In this document: positions 233 to 10,925 of the stretch, piece after piece | Position numbering within the stretch: the stretch's first letter is position 1 | Layout: each line of letters begins with the position of its first letter | Source: an uncultured archaeon | GTDB taxonomy: Archaea; Asgardarchaeota; Lokiarchaeia; Sigyniarchaeales; Promethearchaeaceae | Assembly: GCA_964426185.1 (NCBI GenBank) | Contig: CAYRPF010000038.1 | Location: 1 to 10,925, forward strand | Direction of reading: 5' to 3' | DNA length: 10,925 nucleotides | Translations under genes and position numbers: made by a program | Notes under the pieces: model-generated | What the model saw: only the letters and a program-made list of their open reading frames with translations | Told to the model about the DNA's origin: nothing | Database searches by the model: none

Positions 233-1543
233 TTAAGCGCCCTTTTCGATGGCTAACACAACACCAACGGACACTGTTCGACCCATATCTCGCACTGCAA
301 TTCGACCAATCTCTGGAAAGTCCTTGAATTTTTCTAAGGGGAATTTCTTGATTGGTTGCAACTTAACAATTGCAGCATCACCCTTCTTGATGAATTGAGG
401 ATTATCTTCTAATACTTGACCAGTCTTACCGTCGAGTTTCTTGGATAATTCCACAAATTTACAAGCAATTTGGGCGGTGTGGGAGTGAACTACTGGAGTA
501 TAACCTAAAGCTAAAGCGGTTGGGTGCCAAATTACGATAATTTGAGCGGTGATGGTATCTTTGGGAGTTACCACAGTACAAGGTGATTTAGCATCTGCCA
601 CCACGCATCCCCGATAAACATCTTTCATGGTAATACCTCGGATGTTGAATCCAACGTTATCACCTGGCTGGGCTTGTTGTAAAGCTTCGTGGTGCATTTC
701 GATGGAGCGTAATTCACCTTTAAAATTGGTTGGAGCTACGTCTACTTGCATTCCAACTTTCATCAGTCCGGTTTCGATTCGACCAACAGGTACCACTCCA
801 GCACCTTTAATTTTATAAACATCTTGCACTGGTAAGCGTAAAGGTTTGTCAACAGGTTTTTCTGGAACAGGTAAATTGTCTAAGGCTTCCAATAAGGTTG
901 GACCTTTCCACCATTTCATGTTTTCGGATGGTTCAGCTAAGTTATCACCAACGAAAGCAGATACGGGTAAGAAGGTTACATCTTTTTCGGTGTTGTATCC
1001 TACTACTTTTAATAAATTCTCGATTTCAGCTTTTACTTCGTTGTATCGTTCTTCGGAATAATTTACCGAAGCATCGTCCATTTTATTAATAGCTAAAATA
1101 ATTTTCTTGACACCTAAGGTCTTAGCTAAGAAAGCATGTTCACGACCCTGACCGTTGTCTGAAATGGCTGCAGCAAATTCGCTGGTCTTGGCAGAAAATA
1201 CTAAAATTGCTGCATCTGCTTGACTGGCACCAGTAATCATGTTCTTAACGAAATCAGCATGTCCTGGAGCATCAATAATGGTAAAGTATTTGGATTTTGT
1301 TTCAAATTTACGGAAGGCTAAATCAATGGTAATACCACGTTTGCGCTCTTCGGCTAATCGGTCCATAAAGTATGCAAATTTCCACGATTCACGATCTAAG
1401 TCCTTAGCCATCTTCTCCATTTCACGGGCTTCACGATCAGATACGGCACCGGCTTTAATGAGCAAATGGCCCATCAGGGTGCTCTTTCCATTGTCGATAT
1501 GGCCTATAATGACCAGATTCATATGTTCCTTTTCTTTGGGCAT
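233..1543 (-). CDS. tuf: Translation elongation factor 1-alpha (aEF1A)
   Basis: 436 aa. G1 [9 protein letters not shown], G2 [9 protein letters not shown], G3 [19 protein letters not shown], G4 NKMD, G5 SAFVGDN. Domain II/III signatures [54 protein letters not shown] and GR-AVRDMG-TV-VG. SD-like GTGAT 5 nt before the ATG. Confidence 0.98.
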   Translation of the reverse strand: [436 protein letters not shown]

Positions 1544-2767: not shown

Positions 2768-4939
2768 GTGATTAATAATAATAAGGGAAGGGAGCCTAAA
2801 ATGATGTGGGAATTTCGCGATCTTGAAAAAATCCGCCAATTGTTAGTGCATGGCAGATACAATGAGGCTCTCCAAAATATTATCCTTTACAAGCGTAAAA
2901 TGAAACTTTCAGTAGAAGAAGAAATAAAGGCCGAATTGCTTCATATAGAAATTTTGTTTCGAGCCGGCTTTTTGCAAGATATTGCGCCGAAACTGGATTT
3001 TTTATCGAAGAATTCAGAATTGGCGAATAACATGGAACTATACTTAGAATGGATGGTTCTCAATGCCCGTTATAACCAAGAAATTGGAAAATTAGCATCT
3101 GCAAAACCCTTTTTAAAACAAGCACATGAAATTGTTCTCACTTCTTTTCAGCCTAAATCTGCCAAAGTAGAGAAGCTTACCAAGGAAGAAAAGTCTACAA
3201 AAGAGAATATTATTGATAATTTTGCCAATCAGAAAGAAAGTAAAAACCAAATTTCCCCTCTCCCTTTTATTTTTCAAAAAATCCTTTTTCTGGAAGGAAT
3301 TCAACATTGGTATGAGGGTAACATAGAAGAAGCCCTCCAAAAACTTGAAGATGTGCTTCAAATTATTCCTAAAAACAGCCATTCAGGGCAATATATCCAA
3401 ATTTTAACTTATTACGGCATGATTTTATGTGAAAATGGGGATTATACCCGCGGAATCAGTCATTTACAGCATGCTTTAGAACTTGAGCGTGATTTGGGAG
3501 ATAAAGTTGCTCTTGCTCAAATTTTGGGTCAATTAGGACGCATTACACACCTTCAAGGTCATTTAGATGAAGCATTGAAATACTTACAAGAATCTATTTT
3601 TATCTGGGAAAATTTGGGTGATTTTTCGCAGATTCGCTTTAATTTAGCCGATATCGGCACTATCTATCGCCAGAAAGGGGATTATCATCAAGCATTGAAT
3701 TATATTAAAAGAAGTTTAGTTATAGCAGAACGAATTGGAAATCCTAATGAATTATCTCGATTTTTACTGGAATTAATTCGAATTTACCTTGAAATGAATG
3801 CCATAGAAAATGCAGAAATTGCATTAGCTCGTCTATTTCAACTGCAAACTATGATTTCCAATAAAAAAATTGAATTGCGCTACCGTTTGGCTAATGCATT
3901 GATCTTGAAACAAAAAGGACGGGCACGAAATTTATTTCAAGCTCAAAGTTTATTCACCTCGATCACTGAAGAGCCATTAGTGGAAGAAGAGATTACTCAA
4001 ATTGCATTACTCAATCTGTGTGAGTTGCTTTTAGTTGAATTACGCTTAAATGACGATGCGAGCCTATATGAAGAACTGGAAAAAGTCATTGAAAAACTGC
4101 AGAATGAAGCCGAAAAGCAGGGTTCGCATTTGCTTTATGCTGAAACTTACTTATTAAAAGCTAAATTGCTTTTGCTTCGGTTGAACATTTCTGAAGCCAG
4201 ACATTGCTTAAACCAAGCCCAAACCTACGCTGAACAAAGCGGACTTTTACGCGTTGCTATGAAAATTAGTGAGGAACATGATAAATTAGTTGCTCAACAG
4301 CAAATTTGGAATTCTTATCAGCTGTCAGAGGTTCCTTTGCAAAAACGGGCAGAACTTGCCGAGATCGAGAATTATATGCGAAATATTGTTCATGAAAAGG
4401 GATTTGATACTCCCCAGATGATAAATGAAATTCCAGTTGCTTTCATCCTACTAAATTTAAAGGGAACGGTATTGTATTTCAAAGTTTTTACTTCTTACTG
4501 GAATTTTGATAAAGATATGTTAGCAGGCTTTCTATCAGCCTTTGATATGATGAGTGATGAAGTTTTTTCTCAAACTTTGGAGCGCGCCAAATTTGGAAAT
4601 TTTAATGTAATCGTTCAAAAAATCCAGTCGTTTATGTTGGGATATGTTTATCAAGGGCCTTCATTTTTTGCCCAGAAGAAAATGCAAACTTTAGGTCAAG
4701 AATTCACCGAAAATAAGGTGCTTTTAGAGGAATTAGATAATTTAACAGAAAGCAAAGATTCTTTAGAATCAGTAAATTTGAAAGATGGATTAATTCCGGT
4801 TGAAACAGTCAATTCGACAAAAAACGATATGCAAAAGACACCTTCATATATAAAATATCTCAATGAATTATGTGAATGCATTTTAATTCCCGAATATTCT
4901 AATCCTGCCAAAAAGGCAACACTTCCAGAAAATTCATAA
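2768..4939 (+). CDS. Tetratricopeptide-repeat protein with C-terminal longin-like domain (paralog 1)
   Basis: ~40-aa TPR units (YYGMILCENGDYTRGISHLQHAL; LGRITHLQGHLDEALKYLQES; IGTIYRQKGDYHQALNYIKRSL) and a helical middle region. From ~4430 a bb-a-bbb-a pattern follows: AFILLNLKGTVLYFKVF..DKDMLAGFLSAFDMMSDEVF..LERAKFGNFNVIVQKIQSFMLGYVYQG. A more likely start is ATG 2801, after GGGAG. Confidence 0.8.
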   Translation: MINNNKGREPKMMWEFRDLEKIRQLLVHGRYNEALQNIILYKRKMKLSVEEEIKAELLHIEILFRAGFLQDIAPKLDFLSKNSELANNMELYLEWMVLNARYNQEIGKLASAKPFLKQAHEIVLTSFQPKSAKVEKLTKEEKSTKENIIDNFANQKESKNQISPLPFIFQKILFLEGIQHWYEGNIEEALQKLEDVLQIIPKNSHSGQYIQILTYYGMILCENGDYTRGISHLQHALELERDLGDKVALAQILGQLGRITHLQGHLDEALKYLQESIFIWENLGDFSQIRFNLADIGTIYRQKGDYHQALNYIKRSLVIAERIGNPNELSRFLLELIRIYLEMNAIENAEIALARLFQLQTMISNKKIELRYRLANALILKQKGRARNLFQAQSLFTSITEEPLVEEEITQIALLNLCELLLVELRLNDDASLYEELEKVIEKLQNEAEKQGSHLLYAETYLLKAKLLLLRLNISEARHCLNQAQTYAEQSGLLRVAMKISEEHDKLVAQQQIWNSYQLSEVPLQKRAELAEIENYMRNIVHEKGFDTPQMINEIPVAFILLNLKGTVLYFKVFTSYWNFDKDMLAGFLSAFDMMSDEVFSQTLERAKFGNFNVIVQKIQSFMLGYVYQGPSFFAQKKMQTLGQEFTENKVLLEELDNLTESKDSLESVNLKDGLIPVETVNSTKNDMQKTPSYIKYLNELCECILIPEYSNPAKKATLPENS

Positions 4940-5069: not shown

Positions 5070-7130
5070 ATGTCAATTCCACCCAACTTACAAAATAATC
5101 AATCATCGGTAAATGGATCTGAGAAGAGATCAGATGCTATAGGGGACGGTATGTCAAATAGAGTTTCAGAAAATGTTTCCGAAAAAGTACTCGAGAAAAC
5201 CCTATGTTTATTAGAAGAAATTACCTTTGCTCTCGATCGAGGCCAATTTCCCACCGCTAGAACACTTCTGGCTGAAGTAGACGATATTCCTATTCTCTCT
5301 CGAGAATGTGTACTCCGAGTCCAATTAGCTAAAGTTAGGTTATATTGTTATGAAGAGAAATTTAATGAGGGTCTGAAATTAGCTGATGAAGCATATTTAC
5401 AAGCTTTAGAAATTGCTCAATATCAGATAGCAATTCAGATAGGGGTGAAATTGGCCGATATTCATTCCAGGATGGGAAAAGTTCAGATCAGTCAGGATCT
5501 TTTAGACGATTTGAATATTTTAAATGACGCCCATTTTTCCCAAGATACTGAAATTCATTCCAAATTAAAAAGTGATATTTTATTTATGGTCTCTGCCAAC
5601 CAATGGCACACTGGGCAATTACAAGATTCATTAAATACAATCTTAGAATGTATTGAATTAAGAAGGAAGTATGCATCCGAAGTCGCTCTTGCTAATGCAA
5701 TTGCATTTGAAGGTATGATCTATTGCGAATTGGGGCAAATTCCTAAAGGAATATCATTTCTCAAAGAAGCCTTGGTTTGTCAAAAAAAATTGAATAATCT
5801 TCATTATTTATCAATTCTCTTCAATAATTTAGGTTGGGTATTTCGACTTAAAGGAGATTTAATTAAGGCACAACGTTACTTACAAGAGAGTGTGAAAATT
5901 CGGAAAGAAATTGGTAATATCTTAAATTGTCGGATTGAATTTGCAAATTTAGGGGTAATTGAGCATCAAATGGGAAATCTCGCTCAAGCAAAAAAACACC
6001 TATTTGAAGCATTAGAGTTGGGAAAAAAAGTAGGTAACCCGGTTGAAATTGCGGTATTTCTCTTTTATCTGATTCGATTACTCTTAGATCAAAATAAAAC
6101 GGCGGAAGCGAAAAAAAACATTGATACACTTCAAGAATTAAGCGAACTAACAGGTAATGAGAAAATATCCCAACGATATTTATTAAGTTATGCACTCTAC
6201 TTGATGAAAAATCCACGGGTGAAAAACCTTTATAGGGCTCAGAATATGTTTAGGGAGATCGCCCAGAAAGCTATCGTAAAACATGAATTGACGGTGGAAG
6301 CGCTGATTCATTTGTGCGATTTGCTCATATTTGAATTAAAAATTTCTAATGATCCAGAAATTATGGAAGAAATTAACGATATTTTGGCAAAGCTGTTAAA
6401 TATTGCTAAAGAAATTCGCTCATATTATTTATGGTGTGAAATTAACTTTTTGAGAGCAAAATTGGCCTTGATGAATTTAGATGTGCTCAAAGCCCGTAAA
6501 TTGTTCAGCCAAGCTCAAATTATTGCTCAAGAACAAGGTTTACAACAATTAGCCATACGAATTTCTAATGAACATGATCAATTACTAGAGCAAGAAAAGA
6601 TATGGGAGCAATTTCAAGCTGCACCGCCTGATTATTATAAACGTACTGAATTGGCCCGAATAAATGACAATATTCAGCGAATAAAGAGGCAAGGCATAGT
6701 AGAATCAGTTTATGTTGAGCCTGAAGAACCTGTCATGTTTGTAATTATGAATGAAACGGGACCAAACCTCTATACTCATGCATTTACTGCTGGTTTAAAT
6801 TTTAATGAACAATTATTCGGGGGTATTTTATCCGCGTTTGAAGCTTTTAGCACTGAAATTTTTAAAGGAGTCTTAGAAAGGGCAAAATTCGGAGACTATA
6901 AGGTATTGGTGAAAACTATTTCCCCCTTTTTAGTATGTTATATATATAAAGGGCCCTCATATTTTGCACAGGAAAATTTCATTAAATCATTGGATATGAT
7001 TCAGAATCAGCGAGAAATATGGGAAATTTTGATAGACGCTACTAAAAATGGTAATCTTATTTCTTCCCACCGAATTCCAGAGTTGACTAAAGAACTTGAG
7101 AAAATTTTCCATAATTCAAAAAGATTTTAG
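5070..7130 (+). CDS. Tetratricopeptide-repeat protein with C-terminal longin-like domain (paralog 2)
   Basis: Collinear with paralog 1 (GMIxCExG, YLQES, GNPxE, ALxxLCxLLxxEL, ISxEHDxL, RxELAxI, LERAKFG, YxGPSxFAQ). The longin-like part starts at ~6729: MFVIMNETGPNLYTHAF..NEQLFGGILSAFEAFSTEIF. Alternative start ATG 5151. TATA-like TGTATATACA at 5028-5037. Confidence 0.8.
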   Translation: MSIPPNLQNNQSSVNGSEKRSDAIGDGMSNRVSENVSEKVLEKTLCLLEEITFALDRGQFPTARTLLAEVDDIPILSRECVLRVQLAKVRLYCYEEKFNEGLKLADEAYLQALEIAQYQIAIQIGVKLADIHSRMGKVQISQDLLDDLNILNDAHFSQDTEIHSKLKSDILFMVSANQWHTGQLQDSLNTILECIELRRKYASEVALANAIAFEGMIYCELGQIPKGISFLKEALVCQKKLNNLHYLSILFNNLGWVFRLKGDLIKAQRYLQESVKIRKEIGNILNCRIEFANLGVIEHQMGNLAQAKKHLFEALELGKKVGNPVEIAVFLFYLIRLLLDQNKTAEAKKNIDTLQELSELTGNEKISQRYLLSYALYLMKNPRVKNLYRAQNMFREIAQKAIVKHELTVEALIHLCDLLIFELKISNDPEIMEEINDILAKLLNIAKEIRSYYLWCEINFLRAKLALMNLDVLKARKLFSQAQIIAQEQGLQQLAIRISNEHDQLLEQEKIWEQFQAAPPDYYKRTELARINDNIQRIKRQGIVESVYVEPEEPVMFVIMNETGPNLYTHAFTAGLNFNEQLFGGILSAFEAFSTEIFKGVLERAKFGDYKVLVKTISPFLVCYIYKGPSYFAQENFIKSLDMIQNQREIWEILIDATKNGNLISSHRIPELTKELEKIFHNSKRF

Positions 7131-7152: not shown

Positions 7153-7779
7153 ATGAAATTTTTCTGCCCTCAGTTGATGGATAATCCACAAGATACTGAT
7201 AAAGAAACTTTCTTAGCGTTAATGCTGAAAAAACGCCCAGAATATGCTGTACTATGGGATGTAACTGGAGATGATGTGATAGAATTTAATCGTCGAGTTT
7301 GGGTAACTCAGTACGTGGTCATTGAAGGGCAAACAATCTATTATTCTCAAGCCCGACATTATGCTACCCGTGCTAAAGCACTTTTCGGGATTGATAAAAT
7401 TGTTTATGTGGAATCGGATGAAGAATGGCGTGAATACCTTCCCACTAGTGATAGATTTAAAAAAATCAAGTTTTATGCCCCTGGAGTGGTAGGTGAACCT
7501 AGTGAAATCGCATTAGAAGACTTTATTAATAAAATGCTTAAAATACGGCCCCCATTTGCAGTGTTGTGGGATGTTTCATTCACAGATATAGAATATATTT
7601 CTTCTCGGGTTTATGTTACCAGCTATATGCCCGTGATAGATGACACTATTTATTATTCTTTCGGAAAGCATTTCGCATATTTAGCCCAGAAGAAATTCAG
7701 CATCCCCAAACGTCAGAAAATTTCAATCCAAGAACCTGCTTTTCTCAAAGAAGAAATCCCGATTTCGGAAACTGCATGA
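7153..7779 (+). CDS. Hypothetical protein built from two ~65-aa tandem repeat domains
   Basis: Residues 18-82 and 122-186 align without gaps at 30/65 identities by hand count (MLKxRPxxAVLWDV...RVxVTxY...TIYYS...HxA..A...FxIxK). Starts 22 nt after the TPR2 stop. Alternative start ATG 7177. Confidence 0.75.
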   Translation: MKFFCPQLMDNPQDTDKETFLALMLKKRPEYAVLWDVTGDDVIEFNRRVWVTQYVVIEGQTIYYSQARHYATRAKALFGIDKIVYVESDEEWREYLPTSDRFKKIKFYAPGVVGEPSEIALEDFINKMLKIRPPFAVLWDVSFTDIEYISSRVYVTSYMPVIDDTIYYSFGKHFAYLAQKKFSIPKRQKISIQEPAFLKEEIPISETA

Positions 7780-7795
7780 AAAACAATGGAAAATT

Positions 7796-8317
7796 TCAAG
7801 AAAAATCCAAAGAAGGATCACATCCCTCTTTTAATACTCCAATTTTAATTAAATAATCTAAAATAATTTGGCAAATGTCATTATCAAACGTTTCGTAGAT
7901 CGCTTTATTATTCTTCTTTTGGGTAATTGGCTCTTTAAATTTCTCATAAAATAAATCTAATCCACGTTGGGCTTCTTCTTCTAAATAATCTTTCACCATA
8001 TTTGGGCGGAAAAACAAAGTTAAAATTAAATTATGTCTCTGAACGATACTAAGTTCTATATTTAGTCCACCAATGAAGATGCGATTGATATGCCCTACAT
8101 TTTCTTCTCCAAACATGGCTAGAGCCGCAATGAACTGTGAAATAAGTTCCATTTTAATTTCAGGATCAACTTGGATATTATAGAGCACATCTCCCGTGTT
8201 GCGTGAAACTACAAGGCCTAAAACATATTTTTTCAAGATTTTTTCAATTATTTCACATTGATTCTCAGGAATATTTGCTCTAAATCGATTAAAAATTATT
8301 ACGGATCCATTATCCAT
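7796..8317 (-). CDS. Stand-alone longin-like domain protein
   Basis: Pattern b1 VLGLVVS, G-turn, b2 VLYNIQV, a1 MELISQFIAALAMFGEE, b3-b5 INRIFIG/IELSIVQR/LILTLFFR, a2 YLEEEAQRGLDLFYEKF, a3 YETFDNDICQIILDY. This matches longin topology (sedlin/AP-sigma/Mon1-like). It starts 25 nt after the GTPase stop on the same strand. Confidence 0.7.
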   Translation of the reverse strand: MDNGSVIIFNRFRANIPENQCEIIEKILKKYVLGLVVSRNTGDVLYNIQVDPEIKMELISQFIAALAMFGEENVGHINRIFIGGLNIELSIVQRHNLILTLFFRPNMVKDYLEEEAQRGLDLFYEKFKEPITQKKNNKAIYETFDNDICQIILDYLIKIGVLKEGCDPSLDFS

Positions 8318-8342: not shown

Positions 8343-9296
8343 TTACTGTAATCCTTCTTCTATCTTAAATATCTCTATTGCCAGTTTATAGAACATGTCT
8401 TGAATGTTTTCTCCAGTTTTAGCAGAGCATTCCATAAATAAAAAGCCATGCTCCATTGCAAATTTCAAACCCTCATCACGACTGACTTGACGTTCCAAAT
8501 CTATTTTGTTTCCCACCAATAGTGTAGGCACCTTGCCGCAGTTGTCCTCCAATTCTTGTATCCACTTTGAGAGATTTTCGAACGACAGCCGATTACTAAC
8601 ATCATAGCACAATAAAGCACCTCGAGCATCTCGATAATACATCCCTCTTATTTTATCGTAAAGAGATTGACCCGCTGCGTCCCAAACATTTATTTTGGCG
8701 GTAAATCGATAATTCCCCCCGAATAAAATATCACTGGATATGTATTGACCTTTAATTTCTTTACTCCCGAAGTCAACCCCCAGGGTAGTTTTCAAGTCTT
8801 TTTTGAAATAATCATCGGTAAATCGGACTTTTATGGCTGTTTTTCCTACTGCAGTATCTCCAATTTCAATGATTTTCCAAGAATAATTGTTACGAATTAA
8901 TGCTCTGGCTTCCGTTTCTGCCCAAATTTTAATAGCTGGCCCTGAAATTAAATTTGGTTCCATTTCATCAATATTTGCTAATTTTACTAAATAACCTAAA
9001 TCGTAAGGATTTGTAGCCATTAGTTTTAAAGCATTTTGATTTATTTCTTGGATCTTACCACTGCATGGAGAGTTTAAAGTCGTTATTCCTGTATTTGTTG
9101 TAATTGCGATAAAGGGTTCACCGATTTTTAAATCATTCTCTGAAAGCCATTTTAATTCGATTGGATTTCTAAGAAATGCATAGCCAATTTGATCTAAACC
9201 AATGATTTTTTTTACTGGATCGACATAAACATGCTGATATTTCGTGTAAAAAAGATGATCTGGAATATTGAATCTTCCATCTGCAATTATAACCAT
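8343..9296 (-). CDS. Fusion of an N-terminal glycine-cleavage-H-like (lipoyl-carrier fold, Lys-less) domain and a C-terminal Rab-like small GTPase
   Basis: GcvH-like part: IPDHLFYTKYQHVYV..IGLDQIGYAFL..GEPFIAITTNTGITTLNSPCSGKIQEIN..NPYDLGYLVKL. Rab part: G1 GDTAVGKT, G2/RabF1 TTLGVDF, KINVW-DAAGQ, YYRDA, LCYDVS, SFENLSKWIQEL, GNKID, ECSAKTG. Start moved from 9431 to ATG 9296 (317 aa) because GcvH similarity begins just after it and a TATA box sits 22-29 nt upstream. Confidence 0.88.
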   Translation of the reverse strand: MVIIADGRFNIPDHLFYTKYQHVYVDPVKKIIGLDQIGYAFLRNPIELKWLSENDLKIGEPFIAITTNTGITTLNSPCSGKIQEINQNALKLMATNPYDLGYLVKLANIDEMEPNLISGPAIKIWAETEARALIRNNYSWKIIEIGDTAVGKTAIKVRFTDDYFKKDLKTTLGVDFGSKEIKGQYISSDILFGGNYRFTAKINVWDAAGQSLYDKIRGMYYRDARGALLCYDVSNRLSFENLSKWIQELEDNCGKVPTLLVGNKIDLERQVSRDEGLKFAMEHGFLFMECSAKTGENIQDMFYKLAIEIFKIEEGLQ

Positions 9297-9317
9297 GTTA
9301 TATAGATGGATGTTTGG

Positions 9318-9337
9318 TTTTATAACTGTTTGCTTTC
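9318..9337 (-). promoter_or_regulatory. TATA box with purine-rich BRE-like element for the GcvH-Rab gene
   Basis: Minus strand AAGCAAACAG-TTATAAAA. The TATA (9325-9318) is 22-29 nt from ATG 9296, the spacing expected for a leaderless archaeal transcript. Confidence 0.6.
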
Positions 9338-9431
9338 TTGTTTCGATTTTCAGACAAATCATTCGCATTTGTCTTGGGCTTATTAAATGATAGGTGATAA
9401 ATGTCAACATATATATAGGAAAAAGAAACAT

Positions 9432-9472: not shown

Positions 9473-9991
9473 ATGGCGCCTTATTCTAATTTAATTCAAT
9501 TCAATACCAACTTGGTGGATGAAATTGCTCTGGACGATGACCTCGCAAAAATTAAAGCTTGCATATCATGTGGGCAATGTTCAGCTAGTTGTCCGAGCGG
9601 TAGTTTCACCGCGTTGAGAACCCGTGCAGTAATTCGAAAAGCCCTATTTGGAGTACATAAGGTTTTAGAGGATCCCGATATTTGGCTGTGCAGCACTTGC
9701 TTTAATTGCTTGGAGCATTGTCCCCGAACTATTCCTGTGACAGAAATAATTTTAAAGCTAAGGCAAATGGCGGTACGGCAAGGACATTTGATTGATCCGT
9801 TGAAAGGGGTGATAAACAACCTTATTCATAAAGGTCACGCCGTTCCCCTTGATTCAAAATGGAGTCAACTTCGACTAAAATTGGGTTTAGATGCTCTACC
9901 ACCTACGATTTCAAAATACCCTGAAGTAATGAAAGAAATAACTGATATTCTTTCTGCAATACGATTTACAACGCGTATTCCATTCCGTTAA
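9473..9991 (+). CDS. hdrC: Heterodisulfide reductase subunit C (2x[4Fe-4S])
   Basis: CISCGQCSASCPSG and IWLCSTCFNCLEHCPR ferredoxin motifs, followed by GHAVP and LRLKLGL..LPPT motifs typical of HdrC. Directly upstream of hdrB. Confidence 0.93.
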   Translation: MAPYSNLIQFNTNLVDEIALDDDLAKIKACISCGQCSASCPSGSFTALRTRAVIRKALFGVHKVLEDPDIWLCSTCFNCLEHCPRTIPVTEIILKLRQMAVRQGHLIDPLKGVINNLIHKGHAVPLDSKWSQLRLKLGLDALPPTISKYPEVMKEITDILSAIRFTTRIPFR

Positions 9992-10012: not shown

Positions 10013-10925
10013 ATGAGAGAAGAATCCGAAACTCAAACTCCAACGGAGCAATCACCCAATTTGTCCTATTCCCTATTCTTGGGCTGTGTGATTCCCAACC
10101 GCTATCCTATGATTGAAAAAGCTTCTCGTACTTTATTTGAACATCTAAATATTAATATTAAGGAAATGAAAGGAGCTTCTTGCTGTCCCGCTCCTGGAGT
10201 CTTTCGCTCCGTGGATAAAGCACTTTGGTTGTCAATTGGTGCTCGGAATATTTCACTGGCTGAGGCGCTGCAAGCAGATATTATCAGTCTATGCAATGGT
10301 TGTTATGGCACCCTTTATGAAGTAAACCATCAAATCAAGCACAATCCTGAGTTAAATGACCGAATTAATAGCGTGTTGCAGAAAGTGGGAAAGTCCTTTA
10401 AAGGATCTGTGGCGGTGAAGCAAATTGTGGAAGTTTTGTATTATGATTACAAGATCGAAAATCTGCGTAAATTTATAACTAATCCATTGGGTTTACGCGT
10501 AGCTGTTCATTACGGTTGCCATTTACTTAAACCTACCACCGTAAAGAATTTTCCAGATAATCCCGATGATCCACATTTCTTTGATGAGTTGGTAGAAATT
10601 ACTGGTTCTACTTCTGTTGATTACCAACACAAACAAATGTGCTGCGGTGCCGGAGGTTCTTTACGAACGGGGGCAAAAGAAAGCAGTTTGAAATTTACAT
10701 TAACTAAATTACGGAGCATGAGAAGGGCTGGGGTAGATTGCATAGTAACTTGTTGCCCATTCTGTCAACTTCAATTTGATTTGGGGCAATTGGAGTTGGC
10801 CAACGAGTTGGATCCCGATGAAGAACCTTTTAACATTCCCGTTTTGTATATCAGTCAACTGCTTGGATTAGCCATGGGAATAAGCCCTGCAGAGTTGGGT
10901 ATGATCAAACCAGTGGATATGAAGG
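10013..10925 (+). CDS. hdrB: Heterodisulfide reductase subunit B (two CCG domains), truncated by the window end
   Basis: Not in the ORF track. My translation from ATG 10013 is open to the edge: YSLFLGCVIPNRYP..GASCCPAPGVFRS..ARNISLAE..CNGCYGTL..VAVHYGCHLLKP..MCCGAGG..CPFCQLQFDLGQ..IPVLYISQLLGLAMG. SD-like GTGAT 5 nt before the ATG. Confidence 0.96.
   Translation, partial: MREESETQTPTEQSPNLSYSLFLGCVIPNRYPMIEKASRTLFEHLNINIKEMKGASCCPAPGVFRSVDKALWLSIGARNISLAEALQADIISLCNGCYGTLYEVNHQIKHNPELNDRINSVLQKVGKSFKGSVAVKQIVEVLYYDYKIENLRKFITNPLGLRVAVHYGCHLLKPTTVKNFPDNPDDPHFFDELVEITGSTSVDYQHKQMCCGAGGSLRTGAKESSLKFTLTKLRSMRRAGVDCIVTCCPFCQLQFDLGQLELANELDPDEEPFNIPVLYISQLLGLAMGISPAELGMIKPVDMK

Follow-up and report, generated by a model that had tools for sequence, protein, structure and literature searches.

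The window analysed here, a stretch of 10 925 nucleotides from an uncultured archaeon of the Promethearchaeaceae (contig CAYRPF010000038.1), carries a gene in which a GcvH-like domain is fused to a Rab-like GTPase. We read its product as a conserved Asgard GTP switch with a regulator encoded downstream and with a cofactor-less H-domain used for docking, possibly to an Hdr/CCG enzyme, a reading to which we assign a probability of about 0.55. The gene represents paralogue lineage A of an Asgard family in which a lysine-less domain derived from GcvH/LbpA stands before a non-prenylated Rab-like GTPase, and according to this proposal the protein would act as a GTP/GDP switch. Its regulator would be the longin/roadblock-like product of the gene 25 bp downstream, for which a contact with both switches and with the interswitch strands is predicted, while the H-domain, lying outside the partner interface, would dock without a cofactor and thereby replace a lipid anchor. 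The most likely docking target would be an Hdr/CCG-type redox enzyme, which is the weakest step of the proposal.

The gene occupies positions 8343–9296 of the minus strand and codes for 317 aa plus the stop codon (P0001). The longest open frame on this strand (8343–9431) extends beyond the start that we chose, the ATG at 9296, which gives the product of 317 aa and was selected because homologues begin at a conserved MV(I/T)IADGR, with M1 and V2 of this element kept in at least 95 % of 104 family members. Reading the sequence upstream, we found that a TTATAAAA box ends approximately 22 nt before this ATG, a spacing that would fit a leaderless archaeal transcript. Both the ORF list and the translation bear out the initial annotation in that a single uninterrupted ORF unites the GcvH-like domain with the small GTPase.

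The GTPase domain comprises residues 137–317 (8346–8888, minus strand) and matches the Pfam Ras family (PF00071) with an E value of 2.1e-47. Its nearest solved relatives by sequence, as determined with phmmer against the PDB, are Rab18, Rab2B/2A, the Thorarchaeota Rab 7ezb and Rab8A. An AlphaFold2 model of the full protein, built from a 124-row alignment, reached a mean pLDDT of 89.6 and a pTM of 0.60, and the arrangement of the two domains is not fixed by the model. When the modelled G domain was used in structure searches, it superimposed on Rab3C with a Z score of 28.1 (rmsd 1.5 Å, 169 residues aligned), followed by Rab27a (Z 27.1) and Rab9A (Z 26.6), and Foldseek returned Rab8a with a TM score of 0.9 by target length, so that the closest PDB relatives of this domain are Rabs both by sequence and by structure, with Z scores of 26–28 and rmsd values of 1.3–1.6 Å over 165–174 residues.

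The characteristic elements of a small GTPase, G1 (GDTAVGKT), the switch-I TT, G3 (WDAAGQ), G4 (NKID) and G5 (SAK), together with the catalytic glutamine Q210, are near-invariant in the 104 members, suggesting a domain that is catalytically intact as far as motifs can tell, those for GTP binding and those for hydrolysis all being conserved. The protein shares G1–G5 and the catalytic glutamine with eukaryotic Rabs and with 7ezb, and has RabF-like motifs as well. The RabF1–F5 definition is reportedly that of Pereira-Leal and Seabra; by this definition, LGVDF, KINVW, YYRDA and LCYDVS resemble RabF1, F2, F4 and F5, and RabF3 is weak. What separates the fused family from the Rabs is the 136-aa N-terminal domain, an insertion of approximately nine residues in the β2–β3 (interswitch) hairpin, and the lack of prenylation cysteines. 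The insertion, at residues ~183–198 (8703–8750, minus strand), appears as a gap in the phmmer alignments to Rab18 and Rab2B and contains the residues with the minimum pLDDT of the model (190–192). As for prenylation, none of the 104 members has a cysteine within the last 12 residues and, therefore, none has a C-terminal prenylation motif; for the window protein, both the absence of the motif and the completeness of the small GTPase had been noted before and are upheld here. Four divergent fused members (P0019, P0020, P0024 and P0028) present degenerate GTPase motifs in which the catalytic glutamine is replaced, DxxG being altered in two of them and NKxD reading TKND in one; these four may be pseudo-GTPases.

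Separated by a 25-bp gap and on the same strand as the GTPase gene lies a gene for a longin/roadblock-like protein of 173 aa (7796–8317, minus strand), which is conserved downstream in related loci and which we consider a candidate regulator. Homologues of 159–175 aa are encoded after the lineage-A genes of Harpocratesius, Lokiarchaeum, Promethearchaeum and additional MAGs, and in most of the lineage-A loci examined, across four genera, the homologue is located directly downstream. In two Promethearchaeum MAGs the partner gene is tandemly duplicated downstream of the fused GTPase (L024, 6875–7910; L026, 8148–9195). Neither the protein nor its profile gave a significant sequence match in Pfam or in the PDB, and the Atlas model of the protein has as structural neighbours the clusters Fuz_longin_1, 'Roadblock/LAMTOR2' and V4R, with TM scores of 0.60–0.77.

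To this order of genes corresponds a predicted complex. The GTPase and the downstream protein obtained a score of 0.71, as compared with 0.00 for the best control; this score was attained by 58 of 80 solved complexes and by 2 of 110 mismatched pairs, rates that apply only roughly because alignments made in this analysis were used. At least 81 % of contacts were common to the runs, and the partner had a pLDDT of 74 or more. The predicted contact falls on the G domain, at residues 134–141, 162–178, 201–205 and 216–225, that is, on switches I and II and the interswitch strands between them, and leaves the H-domain outside the interface. This face is the usual regulator face. Complexes of GTPases with longin/roadblock proteins have already been solved, so the success of the prediction may reflect likeness to them. 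A small GTPase with a roadblock/longin regulator is found in MglA–MglB and in Rag–Ragulator, which resemble the present case in that a roadblock/longin-like gene comes after that of the small GTPase and in that the predicted contact covers the switch regions, and differ from it in that no roadblock or longin model of Pfam recognizes the partner described here.

Divergent from the GTPase gene are two genes of the plus strand: an hdrC-like 4Fe–4S dicluster gene (9473–9991), recognized by the Pfam models Fer4_8/Fer4_17 and by an HdrC HMM built here (336 bits), and an hdrB-like gene with two CCG domains (10013–10924; PF02754 CCG, 1.9e-34), which runs off the end of the window. Related loci carry an hdrC-hdrB-hdrA-flpD(mvhD)-ferredoxin block in which the hdrA product measures 660–700 aa. 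Among 30 loci evaluated with HMMs built here, all lineage-A loci of sufficient length showed the hdr block beside the fused gene. The hdr genes diverge from the GTPase gene in Harpocratesius and Lokiarchaeum, while in Promethearchaeum they are co-directional and upstream, indicating that the adjacency survived an inversion. A fused member from another family (G130) is divergent from the gene of a single-CCG protein and lies 2.3 kb from hdrC-hdrB, and the two best stand-alone lysine-bearing relatives (P0029 and P0031) adjoin hdrB, one of them within an hdrC-hdrB-gcvH-like row; among 20 Asgard stand-alone loci of the P0031 type, only 4 had hdr genes within 6 kb. The genomes examined each contain 14–26 matches to the CCG domain, which we read as ~8–13 genes and from which we estimate the chance of a random adjacency to be on the order of 1 %. 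Since lineage A and its nearest lysine-bearing stand-alone relatives adjoin hdrB/hdrC, we propose an Hdr/CCG enzyme as the docking target, which is plausible, if still rather doubtful.

In the loci examined, hdr neighbours were absent from lineage B, which presents an rtcB/SIS context, from Helarchaeota-type members and from other distant members. The Hdr neighbourhood is thus not family-wide, and the adjacency could be synteny inherited within one family. This distribution would speak for a different explanation, in which the H-domain is a generic interaction, oligomerization or intramolecular regulatory module with no link to Hdr, comparable in its role to the roadblock or longin domains fused to other Asgard GTPases, and the hdr genes are simply part of a gene order inherited within the Promethearchaeaceae. 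A generic role would also agree with the AlphaFold2 model, in which the C-terminal helix of the H-domain (residues 121–134) passes almost straight into β1 of the G domain, and with the many kinds of domain to which the GTPases of Promethearchaeum syntrophicum MK-D1 are fused (Tran et al., 2024; PMC10933270). Against it stand the persistence of the Hdr adjacency through the inversion between genera, its recurrence in a different arrangement in another family, and the hdrB neighbours of the nearest stand-alone relatives. We consider the generic explanation less probable than the docking proposal.

The docking proposal in its most specific form would make the H-domain a copy, serving as a decoy or for docking, of a lipoate-binding protein associated with Hdr; the copy would bind the HdrB/CCG subunit, in which case the switch and its regulator would control, or be positioned by, an electron-bifurcating heterodisulfide-reductase-type complex; in this form we regard it as unlikely. 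The nearest known parallel is LbpA, a GcvH-like lipoate-binding protein that is described as required by sHdr sulfur oxidation and as always accompanying hdr-like genes and TusA/DsrE transferases (Cao et al., 2018; PMC6067878). Like LbpA, the fused H-domain belongs to a GcvH-like protein encoded beside hdrB/hdrC, and TusA/DsrE/DsrH genes occur next to the MK-D1 cluster, as is described for sHdr–LbpA systems. In the MK-D1 locus (L012, 92–1912, minus strand), genes for TusA, two DsrE, DsrH and DrsE_2 are found immediately upstream of the hdrCBA-flpD-fer4-GTPase-longin row. The two cases differ in several respects. LbpA needs its lipoyl lysine, while the fused H-domain has none; dependence on LbpA is established (PMC6067878) for the sHdr type, with its hdrC1B1A-hyp-hdrC2B2 neighbours, while the genes found here are of the HdrABC–MvhD type, with a long HdrA followed by flpD-fer4. 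Genes for lipoate ligase were not found in the locus.

The origin of the H-domain is best seen from its family. The N-terminal domain comprises residues 1–136 (8889–9296, minus strand) and, when evaluated alone, reached the GCV_H model (PF01597) with an E value of 0.0027 and 18.0 bits, below the cut-off of 22.2 bits. Thirteen of 14 family N-domains matched GCV_H independently, the best of them at 6.2e-7, and a relative in locus L039 obtained 31.9 bits. When a profile of the family N-domains was compared with the PDB, the 13 best chains were 12 GcvH and one lipoyl-domain E2, with E values starting at 2.4e-4. Searched against 1.8 billion representatives, the profile retrieved, after the family itself, stand-alone proteins of 140–155 aa from an E value of 5e-13 onwards, and these are bona fide GcvH, with GCV_H matches of 1e-24 to 1e-36. 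In agreement with this, the AlphaFold2 model presents a β-rich topology at residues 11–130, with a pLDDT of ~90, followed by the C-terminal helix, and language-model features place the domain among GCV_H clusters (0.87), which we treat as a lead only. Structure searches with the full model against the PDB (Foldseek included), the Atlas and viral structures returned GTPases only, the lists having been filled by the G domain, and they bear on that domain, not on whether the N-domain is a barrel-sandwich hybrid.

The domain shares with GcvH a fold-level sequence signature that includes the C-terminal helix as well as YxxxH, SPxSG and Y..G. Taken together, profile comparisons show the N-domain to be homologous to GcvH, as the initial annotation had assigned it. 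Substitution rates show, moreover, that the domain is under constraint, with no sign of decay: dN/dS is ~0.21 with respect to the closest orthologue, the only pair used because dS is saturated in the others and, at 0.88, is near saturation in this one. The dN of the N-domain is approximately twice that of the G domain.

The domain differs from GcvH in its cofactor site, a point absent from the initial annotation. In the HMM alignment to GcvH chains, Thr69 (codon 9090–9092), located within the former lipoyl hairpin ITTNTGITTL (residues 65–74; 9075–9104, minus strand), aligns with the lipoyl lysine. Across the 104 members this column contains N in 25, R in 18, Q in 15, S in 12, K in 12, I in 5, T in 4, A in 3 and other residues in 10, while the hairpin around it is well conserved (G70 in 100, T73 in 92, L74 in 95 and P77 in 103). 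The 12 lysine-bearing members are scattered across the family, and in the tree the fused members nearest to stand-alone GcvH have Asn or His at this position, indicating that the loss of the lysine is old. The gene is not adjacent to gcvT or gcvP; a gcvT-gcvH-gcvP operon is located on a different contig of the same genome, and its GcvH retains the lysine (IESSKA). Given this early loss and the canonical GcvH elsewhere in the genome, the fused domain represents an extra, cofactor-less paralogue. A working lipoyl carrier was rejected on the lysine counts. With the lysine lost, the domain would not function in carrying lipoate; the fusion to a GTPase and a long stem branch further distinguish it from GcvH.

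That the domain still carries a cofactor, lipoyl or another acyl group, at least in the Lys-bearing members, and that the GTPase is coupled to a lipoate-dependent reaction, would find a basis in those 12 members and in the strong conservation of the hairpin. The Thr in the window protein, the Asn or His of the members nearest to stand-alone GcvH, the scatter of the lysines and the lysine-bearing GcvH of the operon all argue against it, and we hold this role to be very improbable. The loss of the lysine and the recurrent Hdr/CCG neighbours are compatible with a targeting, interaction, sensor or metabolic-coupling module, as was suggested when the fusion was first noticed.

A further gene of the same genome also combines GcvH with another domain. 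Located on contig 15 (L002, 1471–2367, minus strand), among genes for small Cys-rich proteins and a 4Fe–4S protein, it codes for a 298-aa protein with a DGC domain (PF08859) and a lysine-bearing GcvH domain (PF01597, 110 bits), being another unusual GcvH architecture in this genome.

The fusion itself is real and conserved. When the G domain was used as a query, more than 100 clusters of 312–328 aa preceded any single-domain GTPase, and the score fell in a step, from an E value of 1.8e-52 to one of 7.8e-35, at the first stand-alone Rab-like protein. Fused members are encoded in the closed genomes of the cultured P. syntrophicum MK-D1 and Lokiarchaeum ossiferum and in records named Helarchaeota, Hodarchaeota, Sigynarchaeota and Lokiarchaeia. 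A narrow N-domain profile (E 1e-20) detected the family in at least 14 of 400 Asgard genomes, a count that understates its range because distant members score below the limit of that profile. The junction is also spanned, with more than 95 % identity, by Logan contigs of two further public runs (X2, 8854–9216; X5, 8866–9016), and no single Logan contig covers the entire gene. An artefact of assembly or gene calling that united two separate genes is practically negligible as an explanation, since nothing was found in its favour beyond the fragmented assembly (155 contigs) from which the window comes, and the uninterrupted frame, the same architecture in closed genomes and in more than 100 independent clusters, and the two contigs that span 8885–8925 speak against it; a chimera of the assembly was rejected on this conservation and on these contigs.

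The genome to which the window belongs carries two paralogues, the window gene, of lineage A, and a second one on contig 11. The latter (L003, 1351–2373, plus strand) has a probable GTG start and the hairpin ITTETS and is located directly after rtcB, and its Harpocratesius orthologues retain the rtcB/SIS context (L010, L021 and L032). To place the family with respect to GcvH, we built a tree from 33 rows of fused N-domains and 38 rows of stand-alone GcvH-like proteins. Of the stand-alone rows, 35 fell on one side of a branch of length 1.29 with an SH-aLRT of 100, and all the fused rows on the other; the remaining three stand-alone rows, which are long-branched and of doubtful identity, attached elsewhere without support. 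This topology is consistent with one origin of the fused family followed by fast change.

The architecture is not new. Tran et al. (2024; Commun Biol 7:273; PMC10933270), who surveyed MK-D1 for its 74 small GTPases, tagged WP_147662223.1 and WP_147661646.1 as 'GCVHG' in a supplementary alignment, and these two proteins (our P0172 and P0213) are orthologues of the window protein and of its paralogue, respectively. They present the same two domains in 317 and 318 aa, with GTPase domains 75 % and 66 % identical to that of the window protein, and WP_147662223.1, the lineage-A orthologue, has the same hdr and longin-like neighbours, although the hdr cluster is co-directional and upstream in MK-D1, while that of the window is divergent. 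The survey gives the domain label only and does not deal with the lysine, the partner or the gene context, and its main text does not discuss the GCVHG proteins (PMC10933270); full-text literature searches found no other treatment of an Asgard fusion of GcvH with a small GTPase. The initial annotation, which knew of no characterized GcvH–Rab architecture, therefore holds as regards characterization, none having been found, while prior description, which it listed among its grounds for refutation, applies in part, since the 2024 supplement labels the MK-D1 orthologues. The present analysis adds the predicted contact of the partner on the switch face, the Hdr adjacency in two orientations, and the hdrB/hdrC genes beside the stand-alone relatives.

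The remainder of the window contains several other genes. Two paralogous TPR proteins of 723 and 686 aa (2768–4939 and 5070–7130, both plus strand) have a C-terminal domain of ~80 aa in common, with 46 % identity and no Pfam match; its β-β-α pattern recalls roadblock/longin, and a comparison with the downstream-partner family by hhalign was not significant (probability 1.8 %). A pair of TPR genes is found in synteny in the Harpocratesius locus L006. The gene at 7153–7779 (plus strand) codes for a 208-aa protein with two internal repeats of ~95 aa (…AVLWDV…IYYS…) and no Pfam match, and a 196-aa gene occupies the equivalent position in L006. An ordinary elongation factor gene of the EF-1-alpha/aEF1A type, with GTP_EFTU plus D2, D3 and C-terminal domains, is located at 233–1543 (minus strand).

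Asgard archaea encode dozens of eukaryote-like small GTPases, which lack the lipid anchors by which eukaryotic Rabs are attached to membranes. The fused family would be a concrete case in which the anchor has been replaced by a recycled metabolic carrier fold, with both a candidate regulator gene and a candidate target complex. Since the family is present in the cultured P. syntrophicum MK-D1 and L. ossiferum, pull-downs and localization are feasible. If the H-domain were indeed a docking copy that brings the switch to a heterodisulfide-reductase-type complex, small-GTPase regulation would act on core energy metabolism, not on membrane traffic, in the closest archaeal relatives of eukaryotes. 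Should the link to Hdr hold, some Asgard GTPases that look 'trafficking-like' would in fact regulate redox metabolism, which would temper the inferences drawn from them about an archaeal endomembrane system.
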